A stretch of DNA of 64,000 bases from a virus. Position 1 is the first letter of the stretch, and every line of letters begins with the position of its first letter. Positions 4,054 through 30,572 of this stretch are shown here, one piece after another. Under the pieces are notes generated by a model. The model worked only from the letters and a program-made list of their open reading frames with translations, was not told the origin of the DNA and did not search any database. The DNA lies in IMG/VR virus record IMGVR_UViG_2931359275_000001. One strand, given 5' to 3'. Position numbers and translations under genes: made by a program.

Positions 4054-5523
4054 TTAAGCCCCGCTTTTGGCTGGGCTGTTTGGTTGGTCGGTGGCGGTTT
4101 CCGCCTCAGAAATCGTCACACCGGCATAACTCAGAGTGACACCGGCCTCTTGCGCTTTCTTGTGCGTTTTGACGACCTTTTCCCATTGAATATCTGGGTC
4201 AAGACCGCGCCCAATTTGCAAGTCGGTCAAATCCAAAACACCGGCAGCGGCTAACATCAGCTCGCCTTTCGCGTCTTTAATCGGGTCAACGTATTCCCAA
4301 CGCGGTACAAACCATTCCACCGTTGGATCGCCTTTTACCTTGCGCGAGAGCTTGGCCAGCTGCAGCCAGCGCCGTGCGATGGGGCGTAAAAACAGCGGAA
4401 TAAACGTCAGCCAGCGCCATTGCTCGGTCACAGCGCGGTAATCAATCAAACCGACGCGAGCCGAGCTGTAATTGACTTGGCTTAAATCGCCAGTGACTTG
4501 CTCATACGTTGAATCGGTGCCCGCAGAGATCGTGCGCAATTGGCGGCGGGGAAATTCACCGTCGCTACTGGCGGATGGGCTGCCAAAATCAACTGATTCA
4601 CCGGGCTTGAGGTATTCAATTTGCCCCGGTGCAACGCGAGATTTGCGAGGGCCGACACCTTTGCCATCATCGGTTTGCGCGCCAAGTGATCGGCCTTGAT
4701 CGTTTGAAGTGACAAAGGCGGTAAAGCAGGCCTCGATTTTCTTGCGCACCATTTCGGCGTCGTCGTAATCGTCTAAATCGCGCAATTTCATCAGTACGGG
4801 CGCCAAACGCGGCACGCCACGCACTTGCCCAGGGCGGGTTTTCTTAAACACCAATAACACATCAGCAGCATCGACCCGCGATGGGCTTAGCGGCTTAAAC
4901 AAGATCCCTGCTTCACCTGGGTGTCGATTAAACAACCAGTACGCGACCACTTTGCCGATGGCGTCAAATTCCACGCCGTTGATGATGTAGCCGCCGTTTT
5001 TGAGGTCTTCGGTTTTGCTGTGATCGAGAAAATCCGGCTCAAGCAGCTGAATTTGCATCGGCACCGGCAAACCATCTTCGGGGCGGCGGGTGCGCATTCG
5101 CACAATCACCTCGCCCGACTCTTCCATCGTGCGAGCGGCCAAGGCTTGCAGGCCGTTAAAATCAAGATCGTCTTCGGCGCTGGCGACTTCGCACCACTGA
5201 TTCCATAAAGCGGTGACGTCTGGGTCACTCCAACGCGCCGTGATACCGGTGCCGATGGCATGACCAACAAATTTATTAAAAATACTGACCGCATGCGGAT
5301 TATTGCGTGCCAGATCGCGGGAACGATCCCGCAACTTGGGCAGTGCTGCGCTGATTTCAGCGTTGGCGCTACTACCCGACGCTTGCCAACCCGAAGTGCG
5401 GCGGCCTTGTTTGGCCCCATCGTAAGCACGAACTTGATCGAGCGTTTGCCGCGCATAAGATCGCCGCAAACCGGATTCGGGCGCGAAGTAGCCAATTAAT
5501 TTATCAAGCCAAATATCAGCCAT
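4054..5523 (-). CDS. Portal protein, lambda family
   Basis: LRDRSRDLARNN, QVRGVP, NYSSAR motifs. Confidence 0.93.
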   Translation of the reverse strand: MADIWLDKLIGYFAPESGLRRSYARQTLDQVRAYDGAKQGRRTSGWQASGSSANAEISAALPKLRDRSRDLARNNPHAVSIFNKFVGHAIGTGITARWSDPDVTALWNQWCEVASAEDDLDFNGLQALAARTMEESGEVIVRMRTRRPEDGLPVPMQIQLLEPDFLDHSKTEDLKNGGYIINGVEFDAIGKVVAYWLFNRHPGEAGILFKPLSPSRVDAADVLLVFKKTRPGQVRGVPRLAPVLMKLRDLDDYDDAEMVRKKIEACFTAFVTSNDQGRSLGAQTDDGKGVGPRKSRVAPGQIEYLKPGESVDFGSPSASSDGEFPRRQLRTISAGTDSTYEQVTGDLSQVNYSSARVGLIDYRAVTEQWRWLTFIPLFLRPIARRWLQLAKLSRKVKGDPTVEWFVPRWEYVDPIKDAKGELMLAAAGVLDLTDLQIGRGLDPDIQWEKVVKTHKKAQEAGVTLSYAGVTISEAETATDQPNSPAKSGA

Positions 5524-27493: not shown

Positions 27494-28294
27494 TCAAAAC
27501 AAACCACACAATGCCCCAGCATCCCAATTGGTGATCACCAGCTCTTTGCTGCTTTTCACTTGGGCTTGCTTTGCATTGTTGCCATTGCTGTATTTAATCT
27601 TGAGCTCTTGAATCGTTAGCCCGGCAAATGCTTCACGGATGTCGGGATGATCGTTGATGCTGACCATCACCTTGCCTTCGCAGCTTTTCATAAACTCAGC
27701 CATGGCCAGATATTGATCAAATTCAAATGGCACGCCGTACCCTTCGGTTTGCCAATACGGCGGGTCGCAATAAAAGAAGCTGTGCTTACGATCATAACGA
27801 CGCATGCAATCGAGCCAATTCAAATTTTCAACGGTGGTACCGGCCAGGCGTAAATGGGCGGACGAAAGATTCTCTTCAATTCGACACAGATTAATAATCG
27901 GTGCAGTCGTCGCAGTACCGAAGCTTTGCCCATCGACCTTGCCGCCAAAGGCATGCTGCTGCAAATAAAAAAACCGCGCAGCGCGCTGAATATCGGTGAG
28001 TGTTTCGGTTTGGGTGGCCTGCAGCCACTTAAATACTTGCCGTGACGACAACGCCCATTTGAATTGACGAACGAATTCTTCTAAATGATGCTGCACGACA
28101 CGGTACAGATTAACCAAATCGCCATTGATATCGTTAATGACTTCAACTGGGGCAGGAACAGGGCGTAAAAAATACAAAGCGCCACCACCGCAAAAGACTT
28201 CAACATAACAATCGTGCGGTGGGAATAATGGCAACAGGCGGTCAGCCAGTCGGCGCTTACCGCCGAGCCAAGGAATGATGGGGGATGTAGACAT
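27494..28294 (-). CDS. dam: DNA adenine methyltransferase (Dam/D12 class)
   Basis: PWLGGKRRLA, YVEVFCGGGA, VINDIN, FFYCDPPY; GGAG RBS before ATG 28294. Confidence 0.92.
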   Translation of the reverse strand: MSTSPIIPWLGGKRRLADRLLPLFPPHDCYVEVFCGGGALYFLRPVPAPVEVINDINGDLVNLYRVVQHHLEEFVRQFKWALSSRQVFKWLQATQTETLTDIQRAARFFYLQQHAFGGKVDGQSFGTATTAPIINLCRIEENLSSAHLRLAGTTVENLNWLDCMRRYDRKHSFFYCDPPYWQTEGYGVPFEFDQYLAMAEFMKSCEGKVMVSINDHPDIREAFAGLTIQELKIKYSNGNNAKQAQVKSSKELVITNWDAGALCGLF

Positions 28295-28451
28295 TAGCAA
28301 CTCCAGAGTCAGATCCATGATCGGGATCGAATTGGAGGCTCGAGGCCTTCAGATGATTCAGTGTTCCACACCGGGGACACTTGATAGACAGCTCAATAAA
28401 CCGCCCTTCTGCGAGCTTTTTATTGCATTGAGAACAACGTATATTTTGCAT
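28257..28451 (-). CDS. com: Com-family zinc-finger regulator (Mu Com-like)
   Basis: IRCSQCNKKLA...IKCPRCGTLN, overlapping the methylase 5' end. Confidence 0.88.
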   Translation of the reverse strand: MQNIRCSQCNKKLAEGRFIELSIKCPRCGTLNHLKASSLQFDPDHGSDSGVANVYIPHHSLARR

Positions 28452-28492: not shown

Positions 28493-28535
28493 GCAAAAAA
28501 AAAGCCCACCCTTGCCATGTAAGCAAGGGTGGGCT
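28493..28535 (-). terminator. Terminator at end of lysis operon
   Basis: 13-bp stem AGCCCACCCTTGC/GCAAGGGTGGGCT with A tract. Confidence 0.8.
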
Positions 28536-28632: not shown

Positions 28633-29199
28633 TTAAAATACCCATCCCGCTCGAACGCGAGCGACGTTTTGACCGGCTGGACTTTGCGCCAGATCTAAGC
28701 CCAAACGTACACGTGACAAATCGCGCTCGAGCCAAATGCCTTTTTCACGATCACTGCTATAACTCACACCCACGGCCCAAACTTTAGCCGGCGGTGGGAT
28801 ATAGCTGGCCTCGAGTGGCATATCAATGGCACTGACCACTTCGCCATCTTGCGAGCTCGCGACGATGCGCCGACCATCGCCCGATTGCACTAAGCTCAAA
28901 TCAACCGATACCGGCGGACAATCTAGCCCCGAGGCTTTATTTGCAGCTGGTTTTGGCTTCACAGTTACCGCAATCCGCCGCTCTTCGCGGCTACCCGCTG
29001 GCAAAACATGCGGTGCTGACGACGGTTTGGCCACTGGGCTTCGCGCAGCAATCACACTACCGTCGCTTTGTTGCACAGCGGGTAATGTCGTCACCACTTC
29101 GGTAACAGGGTGGCGATAATCACCGAGCAAATACCCCAGCCAAGCCACAAACAGCAACGCAAGCAGTACGACGACATTTTTAATAGTCAGTTGTTTCAT
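28633..29199 (-). CDS. Putative spanin-like lysis protein (N-terminal TM, C-terminal amphipathic beta strands)
   Basis: ATGA-coupled to endolysin; TM VVVLLALLFVAWLGYLL; ends VARVRAGWVF. Confidence 0.55.
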   Translation of the reverse strand: MKQLTIKNVVVLLALLFVAWLGYLLGDYRHPVTEVVTTLPAVQQSDGSVIAARSPVAKPSSAPHVLPAGSREERRIAVTVKPKPAANKASGLDCPPVSVDLSLVQSGDGRRIVASSQDGEVVSAIDMPLEASYIPPPAKVWAVGVSYSSDREKGIWLERDLSRVRLGLDLAQSPAGQNVARVRAGWVF

Positions 29200-29630
29200 C
29201 GCGCAGTCCGCCATTCTTTACGCTCATAATGCGGATAGTCCGGCGTTTTCCAGCGCCCGCCCCACACCAAACCAAAGCGCTCGCCAATCGGGCCTAGGCT
29301 TAAATAAAAACCCAATTCTCTGGCGTTATTGCCTTGCAAATATTTGCCGTTTTCAAACACCCCGACATCGAGCGCCTCAGCGTCGCCATGCGGCGTTTCG
29401 GGCAAATCGGTGTTATGGGCGCTGCTTTGGGTCCATGTCACTTTGGGGCCGGGCTTAGTTCGCCCTTGCGCATACAAAGCATTTTGCTCAGACTGCGGCC
29501 GCCAAGTGCAGGTTAAACGCACTTCAAGTGCTGGATTTTGCTGTTGTAACGTGGCATTGGCTTCGGCAATAAATTGCTCAGCAAGCCCACGGATGCTGGC
29601 GTGTAAATCTTTGAGTTCACGACTAGACAT
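29196..29630 (-). CDS. Endolysin, peptidase M15 (L-Ala-D-Glu peptidase type)
   Basis: WRPQSEQNALYAQGRTKPG, SAHN...ALD, WGGRWKTPDYPHYE. Confidence 0.92.
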   Translation of the reverse strand: MSSRELKDLHASIRGLAEQFIAEANATLQQQNPALEVRLTCTWRPQSEQNALYAQGRTKPGPKVTWTQSSAHNTDLPETPHGDAEALDVGVFENGKYLQGNNARELGFYLSLGPIGERFGLVWGGRWKTPDYPHYERKEWRTAR

Positions 29631-29693
29631 GAGTTTTTCCATAAAAAAACCCGCCAATCCATACAGACAGGCGGGTCGTTGAGCGATGACGTA

Positions 29694-29975
29694 TTAACCG
29701 CCGTTGATTTTGTTGGCTTGCTTCTTAAACCAGAGCTCGACAAATTGCGCGCCAACAATCCCCAATGCCGAACCAATGCCCAGTAAAGCAATCGGGTGCA
29801 AATTGGGGATCTGAATCAACGCCAAACCGGCAATCGACGACGTTGCCGCGCCTAAAATTGAACGCCCAAAACACAGGCGAACTGTCAATTCTTCTTTTGA
29901 AACCAGCAACTTACCCAGCCCGATCAAAGCGCCCGCCACTAACACGCTGATTAATGTTTTTTCATGTTCTTGCAT
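29694..29975 (-). CDS. Holin, P2 gpY-like
   Basis: EKTLISV...LGKLL..E.LT.RL..GR.ILG...GIGSALGI.G.Q pattern matching P2 gpY. Confidence 0.88.
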   Translation of the reverse strand: MQEHEKTLISVLVAGALIGLGKLLVSKEELTVRLCFGRSILGAATSSIAGLALIQIPNLHPIALLGIGSALGIVGAQFVELWFKKQANKINGG

Positions 29976-29981
29976 ATCGCT

Positions 29982-30572
29982 TCACCGATCTTGAGACGTA
30001 AAAAAACCCGCTTTTGCGGGAGGTTGATTTTCTGTTTTGCCCCGCTGCATTAGCGGACTAAACCGATGACAAATCGGGATTCGCTCAGTCGGATCGCGTA
30101 GCAAATTACCCAGCTTCCACCCGACGCGAATATTGATGCAGCGCCCAAACAGCGACGGCCATGTTGCCGAAAACTCAAACGCGCAGCGACCTTTTTGATC
30201 AGTCACCAGCGTTAAATACGCGCCGGGGATATACGTCGGCACGCGCCGCGCCTGCAGATTGCCCCAATGCCGCAAAGTCGGCCGATCAAACGTTTGCCCG
30301 AGCCAAAAAGAAAAGCCCGCAGCAGGATTGCGCCACTGCCACAGCACATACGTCCACCAACTGGCGGTGTGCGACGCACAAAAACCGGCATCGCCATTGC
30401 AGCCATCCATGCGCGAATCGGGCGTTTGAAACCACCATAACCAGCGCGGCAAATAACCATCGCGTCGAACAAAAAGCGCAATCACCGGCGCCAGCAGCAT
30501 CGCCAGCACTGTAAACAGCACATCCATCACGGCCAAAAATGGCCACATCATGATCAGCCTCATGCTGGCCAC
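29982..30572 (-). CDS. Conserved hypothetical Trp-rich membrane protein
   Basis: N-terminal TM, LPRWLWWFQTPD, WQWRNPA motifs. Confidence 0.6.
   Translation of the reverse strand: MASMRLIMMWPFLAVMDVLFTVLAMLLAPVIALFVRRDGYLPRWLWWFQTPDSRMDGCNGDAGFCASHTASWWTYVLWQWRNPAAGFSFWLGQTFDRPTLRHWGNLQARRVPTYIPGAYLTLVTDQKGRCAFEFSATWPSLFGRCINIRVGWKLGNLLRDPTERIPICHRFSPLMQRGKTENQPPAKAGFFTSQDR

Follow-up and report, generated by a model that had tools for sequence, protein, structure and literature searches.

A phage protein family with an N-terminal membrane helix and four C-terminal amphipathic strands as a candidate spanin equivalent

Results

The last gene of a phage lysis cassette

A gene of an unannotated phage family lies at the end of the lysis cassette in a 64,000-nt stretch of viral DNA (IMG/VR record IMGVR_UViG_2931359275_000001; the whole stretch is referred to as the window). 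The gene is encoded on the minus strand at 28633..29199, with its ATG at 29199 and its stop codon at 28633–28635, and specifies a protein of 188 amino acids (aa). An original prediction, made from the letters of the window, had described it as the last gene of the holin-endolysin cassette, coupled to the endolysin, and had proposed that it encodes a one-protein spanin.

Upstream on the same strand lie a Peptidase_M15_4 endolysin (29196..29657 as the longest open reading frame (ORF), with the ATG of MSSREL at 29630 as the likely start) and, before it, a Phage_holin_3_2/phrog_175 holin (29694..29975). The TGA of the endolysin and the ATG of the candidate gene overlap in the tetranucleotide ATGA (29196..29199, minus strand), indicating that translation of the candidate gene is probably coupled to that of the endolysin; the same 4-nt overlap is present at the homologous loci L121 and L122. 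The sequence arrangement of the operon suggests co-transcription of the two genes, and an intrinsic terminator consisting of a 14-bp stem and a T run (28503..28535, minus strand) closes the lysis operon 100 nt downstream of the candidate gene. Past this terminator follow a Com-like zinc ribbon, a Dam-type methylase and an integrase. Thus, the candidate is the last gene of the late operon and lies near the prophage end, and both the ATGA overlap and the terminator behind the gene agree with the position originally proposed for it.

A sister prophage carries Rz/Rz1 in the same place

The same chromosome harbors a second prophage ∼38 kb to the left and outside the window (G000:C1:2524339-2527692, locus L081). 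Its lysis cassette consists of a divergent Phage_holin_3_2 holin, an M15_4 endolysin that is 89% identical to that of the window, and an Rz gene (PF03245, 73 bits) with an embedded Rz1 lipoprotein (lipobox LALSAC, Pro-rich mature part). High DNA identity between the two prophages begins at a shared hairpin and T run upstream of the endolysin, extends across the endolysin and ends at the endolysin stop codon. Since Rz/Rz1 follows this boundary in one prophage and the candidate gene in the other, we read the exchange as a modular replacement that marks the two as functional analogues. The 188-aa protein itself has no similarity to the sister prophage Rz in a BLASTP comparison (E 11). The two prophages differ in their holin and spanin modules, a case of lysis-module mosaicism within one genome. 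Positions 1 to ∼14500 of the window look like part of the second, tandem prophage.

Homologs follow unrelated endolysins

Neighborhoods of homologs were counted at 80 viral loci, where crude ORF calling in GC-rich DNA limits the numbers; a recognized endolysin cluster lies at most two genes upstream on the same strand in 44 of them. The enzymes are GH24 lysozymes (11 loci), Tlde1/YkuD-type enzymes (11), GH19 enzymes (10), M15_3 peptidases (6), an unassigned ∼320-aa cluster (4) and M15_4 peptidases (2). Outside these counts, a GH108 enzyme lies upstream in G109, a DUF5675 protein in L075 and the M15_4 enzyme in the window. Thus, at least six unrelated types of endolysin precede the homologs, either immediately or within two genes. 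At many of the remaining loci, the homolog is preceded by a small membrane protein that resembles a holin.

Loci with properly called genes agree with these counts. In L121 (Chitiniphilus), holin, lysozyme and homolog are joined by 4-nt overlaps and followed by the prophage end, and in L122 (Solimonas) the same three-gene cassette precedes the small terminase, large terminase and portal genes, as lambda Rz does. In the P2-like locus L006, the homolog lies between a K-like lysozyme and GpR, which is the slot of P2 lysA/lysB/lysC.

Coiled-coil proteins of ∼110–190 aa with a single transmembrane (TM) helix recur beside the cassette and have no Pfam match. They follow the homolog in L039, L042, L043, L048, L060, L069 and L070 and precede the endolysin in L016 and L038; their helix is mostly C-terminal, and N-terminal in one group. 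These proteins may be the holins of these phages.

No other spanin detected in the carrier phages

The original prediction had stated that no same-strand ORF for an Rz1-like lipoprotein accompanies the gene. We detected no lipobox ORF in any frame of the candidate gene and no credible one elsewhere in the window, nor any conserved lipobox ORF embedded in, overlapping or adjoining the homologs at the 80 viral loci. These frame and locus scans thus gave no embedded or overlapping outer-membrane spanin subunit (o-spanin). The few real lipoproteins in homolog loci are 1.3–1.8 kb away, in a handful of loci. One of them, a conserved ∼90-aa lipoprotein starting MRYLGLMLLLTGC, is found 1.3–1.8 kb upstream of the homolog in four loci (L031 4115-4387, L055 4627-4899, L060 287-565 and L069 4555-4833) and is absent from the other 76; it looks like a small folded protein, not like a Pro-rich o-spanin.

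At the genome level, five viral records with a homolog, three of them complete, lack PF03245, and a lipobox scan of two complete viral genomes gave no credible o-spanin. In the candidate's own genome, spanin families were matched only in the sister prophage: searches with PF10721 and PF06085 returned only its Rz and a sub-threshold chance match. The other same-strand TM ORFs of the window prophage are only the holin, the DUF7338 protein and the tape measure. The survey of homolog neighborhoods suggested along with the original prediction therefore revealed no Rz/Rz1 in the 80 loci, the five PF03245-free records or the two complete genomes.

A family known from prophages and uncultured viruses

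A phmmer search of 1.8 billion cluster representatives identified 485 family clusters at E<1e-3, a lower bound with clusters defined at 50% identity, and 271 at E<1e-10. Relatives are encoded on at least 103 IMG/VR contigs, and a homolog is carried by one of 400 sampled Pseudomonadota genomes. Named sources are Deefgea, Chitiniphilus, Chitinolyticbacter, Solimonas and other Pseudomonadota, in all of which the protein is listed as hypothetical; the hosts belong to at least two orders and the sequences are diverse. No model of Pfam, PHROG or NCBIfam matches any member (134 members tested against Pfam), and tblastn searches with four diverse members gave no match in 50,697 GenBank phage records. 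With matches in genomes and IMG/VR but none among these phage records, the family is known only from prophages and uncultured viruses. Fused forms longer than 330 aa were not among the scored sequences, which is weak evidence.

The nearest predicted structures in BFVD and the ESM Atlas are uncharacterized phage proteins of similar size, including DUF6808 and DUF6549, and a “structural protein” of Cellulophaga phage phi17:2 (R9ZZB8) matches the AlphaFold2 model with a Foldseek E of 1.2e-4. No sequence link to these three look-alikes was detectable, and on the basis of the models they may be analogous proteins or further branches in Bacteroidota phages. DUF6808 was absent from the 401 Pseudomonadota genomes and the control genomes searched, and neither DUF6808 nor DUF6549 is mentioned in the papers that were searched.

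An N-terminal helix that resembles a signal-anchor

AlphaFold2, run with a 134-sequence alignment, models the 188-aa protein with a predicted local distance difference test score (pLDDT) of 92.2 and a predicted TM-score (pTM) of 0.75. Its sole helix comprises residues 6–27 (29119..29184, minus strand), and the remainder consists of eight beta strands. The predicted TM helix carries a conserved Gly22-Trp/Tyr23 pair at its periplasmic end (Gly22 in 184 and Trp/Tyr23 in 195 of 270 sequences). Among ∼260 homologs, the uncharged N-terminal stretch has a median length of 22 residues (10th–90th percentile 19–29) and the best 19-residue window of the helix a mean Kyte-Doolittle hydrophobicity of 2.2; a GxxxG motif occurs in the helix of 172 of 260 sequences.

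Judged by sequence heuristics, no Ala-X-Ala site follows the helix, and the uncharged stretch, with its median of 22 residues, is longer than expected of a signal peptide. The helix therefore looks like an uncleaved signal-anchor rather than a signal peptide. The first 93 residues of the protein contain no Cys, and the N-terminal regions of the family contain no lipobox, so that the N-terminal TM helix without a lipobox Cys described in the original prediction is also seen in the model. A releasable helix of the signal-anchor-release (SAR) type is not supported, as the Gly+Ala+Ser+Thr fraction of the helix is 0.21 in this protein and 0.37 as the family median.

A folded beta domain in the periplasmic part

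The region behind the helix had been taken for a Pro/Ala-rich linker, and this did not hold: most of it is predicted to be a folded beta domain. Residues ∼31–130 (28810..29109, minus strand) modeled alone give a compact beta domain (pLDDT 91, pTM 0.81), and its internal contacts, among them the pairs 51–124, 73–110, 64–102 and 101–114, emerge from a mean-field coevolution analysis (215 effective sequences). No look-alike was found among solved structures (best VIA Z 2.7; Foldseek E >1). Linker-like behavior is confined to residues 82–93, an insert of 4 to 33 residues across the family, and to residues 128–140, a Pro-rich hinge (28780..28818, minus strand) that joins the beta domain to the C-terminal strands. 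The domain also holds Cys94 in a DCPP motif (codon 28918..28920, minus strand), the lone periplasmic Cys in most members: of 253 sequences, 207 have Cys94 and 152 have exactly one periplasmic Cys.

A C-terminal unit with outer-membrane-protein-like statistics

Residues 141–188 (28636..28779, minus strand) form a four-strand amphipathic beta meander that ends in GWVF and is the proposed outer-membrane-inserting unit. AlphaFold2 places strands b5–b8 at residues 141–147, 153–161, 164–172 and 178–186, and coevolution confirms the registers of b5–b6, b6–b7 and b7–b8. Of 167 homologs, 150 end in F, W or Y, and the preceding positions 182, 184 and 186 are hydrophobic. The four amphipathic strands and the terminal aromatic residue of the original prediction are therefore features of the family.

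In ∼270 sequences, the outer face of the four strands (15 alternate positions, setting aside the invariant Arg159) is 97% hydrophobic or aromatic and 0.3% charged. The opposite face is 41% charged and 26% Gly, with near-invariant G144, G154, G167 and G185 and a network of W156, E158, D160, R165 and R183. The b6–b7 turn always has three residues, the b5–b6 loop 6–9 and the b7–b8 loop 8–18. Taken together, the strand, loop and face statistics of this unit look like those of an outer-membrane protein (OMP).

Strands b5 and b8 coevolve as strongly as adjacent hairpins do, though they are three strands apart in an open sheet. Such coupling is suggestive of a small barrel closed by oligomerization. 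None of the strands of the N-terminal domain coevolves with the C-terminal unit, which makes it unlikely that the hydrophobic face is buried against that domain. As the N-domain strands are far less amphipathic and lack an OMP match, a monomer offers four suitable strands, and a closed barrel of at least eight strands would thus need oligomerization. A monomeric 8-stranded OMP of the OmpX/Lom type was rejected accordingly: fold matches cover only residues 139–188, and the N-domain, with weakly amphipathic strands, reaches a best Z of 2.7.

Fold matches of the full model are confined to residues 139–188, with Z ∼6. They include the trimeric autotransporter anchors of AtaA and Hia (Z 5.7–5.8, root mean square deviation 2.0–2.1 Å over 50 residues) as well as KdgM, LptD and Tom40, and the top ones include gasdermin, C8 and aegerolysin pores. 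When the family profile was compared to all PDB sequences, the AtaA anchor ranked second with a non-significant E of 0.84, and an hhalign alignment with YadA anchors brought all four strands into colinear order over 49 columns. The YadA_anchor model PF03895 matches none of 134 members at E<0.1. Thus, the protein shows the four strands and the terminal aromatic residue of the trimeric-autotransporter pattern originally proposed, but it has no match to the family model and no helix before the strands; we read the likeness to YadA-type anchors as a resemblance of pattern, not as membership.

Other features of the operon and its surroundings

A hairpin, CCCGCC ... GGCGGG followed by seven T's, lies between holin and endolysin, just before the endolysin start (window ∼29655–29695, minus strand). 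It is also present in the sister prophage, at the point where the block of DNA identity begins, and judged by its sequence it could be an internal terminator or attenuator; the consensus terminator scan overlooked it owing to its long loop. Directly upstream of the holin lies a DUF7338/phrog_2143 membrane protein (29982..30572, minus strand), which is also encoded two genes upstream of the homolog in L042, L043 and L048 (∼4700–5362) and may be a further lysis-associated membrane protein.

Past the lysis terminator, the region 27494–28451 (minus strand) encodes a zinc ribbon like that of Mu Com (PF10122, E 1e-16), whose ORF overlaps the start of a D12-class N6-adenine DNA methyltransferase (PF02086). 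The arrangement is com/mom-like, but with a Dam-type methylase in place of Mom, and the overlap suggests that translation of the methylase may be under Com-dependent control.

Discussion

A probable role in the outer-membrane step of lysis

Several lines of evidence converge on a function of the family: its position at the end of the lysis cassette, the coupling to the endolysin, the independence from the endolysin type, the exchange with the Rz/Rz1 pair of a sister prophage, and the fact that no other candidate was found in the carrier phages. Because of these, we consider it likely that the family performs the outer-membrane step of lysis and thereby acts as a spanin equivalent. This part of the proposed one-protein spanin, a role that replaces Rz/Rz1, is strongly supported by genomic context; the other part, a helix in the inner and a barrel in the outer membrane, is consistent with the data and no further. 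The outer-membrane half of that architecture draws on the OMP-like statistics, the terminal aromatic residue, the b5–b8 coevolution and the weak likeness to AtaA and Hia. The mechanistic reading with the best support, a protein with an inner-membrane anchor and an oligomeric outer-membrane barrel to which each subunit contributes four strands, is plausible on the models but remains tentative.

The mechanism that we envisage would proceed as follows. The helix would remain in the inner membrane as a type II anchor, the one conserved Cys of the beta domain would disulfide-link two copies, as in Rz and Rz1, and the beta-barrel assembly machinery (BAM) would deliver the last 48 residues to the outer membrane. 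There, two to four copies would close a small beta barrel of 8 to 16 strands, so that each oligomer would tie both membranes together through the peptidoglycan mesh. After the holin has fired and the endolysin has removed the wall, the complexes could move freely and adopt the compact fold predicted by AlphaFold, and this folding would pull the membranes together until the outer membrane is ruptured or fused.

Several observations weigh against this architecture. The fold matches are generic, as soluble methyltransferase sheets score equally with Z ∼6, and the hhalign comparison to 19 YadA anchors is weak (P 0.0039, probability 8.6%; P 0.27 for the reversed control). In the canonical beta-signal the conserved Gly is found at −5, whereas here it is at −3; the invariant Arg159 lies on the hydrophobic face, and residues 128–140 are Pro-rich and non-helical, so that no barrel-filling helix precedes the strands. 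The trimer of the original prediction copies the autotransporter anchor; the conserved single Cys and the GxxxG motif would be at least equally compatible with two copies (8 strands) or with a dimer of dimers. We know of no BAM substrate that keeps an N-terminal helix of its own in the inner membrane as an anchor. Finally, the folded protein is an estimated ∼10 nm long compared to a periplasm of 20–25 nm, and a folded domain directly follows the helix. Being too short for the periplasm in its folded form, the protein would need an extended intermediate, with folding supplying the pull. An extended chain has likewise been assumed for the 131-aa spanin of phage T1 (PMC6139136).

Alternative explanations

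The first alternative keeps the outer-membrane step, and with it all of the context evidence for a lysis role, but supposes that the protein is not inserted in advance. It would wait tethered to the inner membrane, and its hairpins would insert from the periplasm after the wall is lost, forming either a large multimeric beta pore to which each subunit gives four strands, like the pores of gasdermins and MACPF proteins, or a leaflet-disrupting sheet. Such a model requires neither BAM nor a resting state that spans the periplasm, and it would account for the gasdermin, C8 and aegerolysin pores among the top fold matches to residues 139–188. The conserved aromatic residue at the extreme C-terminus is, however, a hallmark of BAM substrates and not of pore-forming toxins, and the short fixed turn on the periplasmic side with variable outer loops fits a resident OMP. 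Moreover, the helix is strongly hydrophobic and not SAR-like, so that release from the inner membrane is unlikely and the tether would be short. We regard late insertion as rather unlikely.

A second alternative, to which we likewise give only a minor chance, holds that the protein is not a lysis effector at all: it could be a regulator, such as an antiholin or a modulator of the endolysin, or an accessory envelope protein, for example for superinfection exclusion or surface modification. In a variant, the N-terminal helix would be a cleaved signal and the accessory protein a secreted OMP. Lysis genes can indeed have accessory neighbors, as illustrated by lambda bor, which adjoins Rz1, and several of our loci have a small membrane protein between the endolysin and the homolog. 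Against this stand the coupling of the gene, in mosaic phages, to at least six endolysin families, its exact replacement of Rz/Rz1 relative to the sister prophage, and the lack of another gene for outer-membrane disruption in the carrier phages. For the secreted variant, the 22-residue uncharged helix with conserved interface residues and no Ala-X-Ala site would be unexpected.

The least probable explanation is a protein similar to an inner-membrane spanin subunit (i-spanin) whose outer-membrane partner is a host component, for example with the C-terminal sheet beta-augmenting BamA or another OMP: the i-spanin topology, the conserved periplasmic Cys as in Rz, the lack of a phage o-spanin and a beta-signal-like C-terminus of the kind that BamA and BamD bind would all be in line with it, but hosts from at least two orders and diverse sequences argue against one specific partner, the 97% hydrophobic face over all four strands exceeds what edge docking needs, and the intradomain coevolution suggests a closed unit.

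Implications

Lysis surveys that define spanins by a transmembrane domain (TMD) and a lipobox would miss this family. If our reading with an inner-membrane helix and an outer-membrane barrel is true, the family would explain part of the “spaninless” phages that infect Gram-negative bacteria. It would then also be the first natural protein to reside in both membranes, held by a helix at one terminus and by a beta barrel at the opposite one. Confirmation would extend the lysis toolkit by a new topological class, improve phage annotation, and provide a model for BAM delivery across the periplasm and for intermembrane fusion; for engineering in non-enteric hosts, it would offer a lysis module that is compact and consists of a single gene. 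The family would become a new class if integration into both membranes were confirmed. The two cassettes of one genome, with one endolysin followed by Rz/Rz1 or by the candidate gene, offer an isogenic comparison.

Comparison with known systems

Published classes for the outer-membrane step are the two-component spanins and the unimolecular spanins (u-spanins), the latter with an N-terminal lipobox and a C-terminal TMD (PMC6139136; PMC12596118), and a further class is represented by the disruptin peptide (bioRxiv 10.1101/515445). About 15% of phages with Gram-negative hosts have no recognizable spanin (bioRxiv 10.1101/515445), and surveys of lysis genes still define spanins by TMD and lipobox (PMC12596118). 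None of the published classes combines an N-terminal TMD with a C-terminal beta-strand anchor. It is possible, though we hold this even more tentatively than the architecture itself, that the family represents a fourth class of phage outer-membrane disruption, a homo-oligomeric and probably disulfide-linked “beta-spanin” with a helix and a BAM-inserted barrel that fuses or ruptures the membranes by folding.

Of the known systems, lambda Rz/Rz1 (PF03245 with Rz1 PF06085) is likewise encoded behind holin and endolysin, at the cassette end. It shares with the 188-aa protein an N-terminal inner-membrane anchor, a conserved periplasmic Cys and the potential for covalent homodimers, and the two are interchangeable behind an 89%-identical endolysin in the same genome. 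In contrast to Rz/Rz1, the 188-aa protein is the product of one gene without a lipoprotein partner, its periplasmic part is all-beta instead of coiled-coil, and its contact to the outer membrane is proposed to be made by integral beta strands, not by a lipid anchor. From the i-spanin features of PF03245 and PF10721, it has the N-terminal TMD and the periplasmic C-terminal part; it has neither a coiled coil nor a profile match (no Pfam match in 134 members), and no cognate o-spanin was detected in the gene, the window, the 80 loci or the two complete viral genomes.

The u-spanin gp11 of phage T1 (PMC6139136) is likewise a single polypeptide with a beta-rich periplasmic domain and proposed contact with both membranes; it is also last in its lysis cassette and works with different endolysin types. 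However, the polarity of the 188-aa protein is reversed, with the TMD at the N-terminus instead of the C-terminus and no lipobox, and its C-terminus is an OMP-like four-strand unit in which a beta strand ending in GWVF takes the place of the helix. Moreover, none of 58 known u-spanins has a periplasmic Cys (PMC6139136), unlike the family described here.

With the YadA_anchor domain (PF03895; AtaA 9vnj, Hia 2gr8/3emo), the protein has in common a terminal aromatic residue and four C-terminal amphipathic strands, which resemble those of the anchor in strand and loop length and have glycines facing the lumen. A C-terminal beta-signal as in BAM substrates is present, with the terminal aromatic residue and alternating hydrophobic positions. 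In contrast to YadA-type proteins, the 188-aa protein would keep its inner-membrane anchor, and it has neither a passenger domain nor a coiled coil before the strands.

The phiKT protein gp28 is a short peptide, cationic and amphipathic, that is not known to have a membrane anchor. This disruptin (bioRxiv 10.1101/515445) likewise represents a non-spanin solution in a phage without spanins, whereas the 188-aa protein is predicted to be an anchored beta protein. Given a probable role like that of the spanins but without the defining features of each known class, we file the family as spanin-like with a distinct build.

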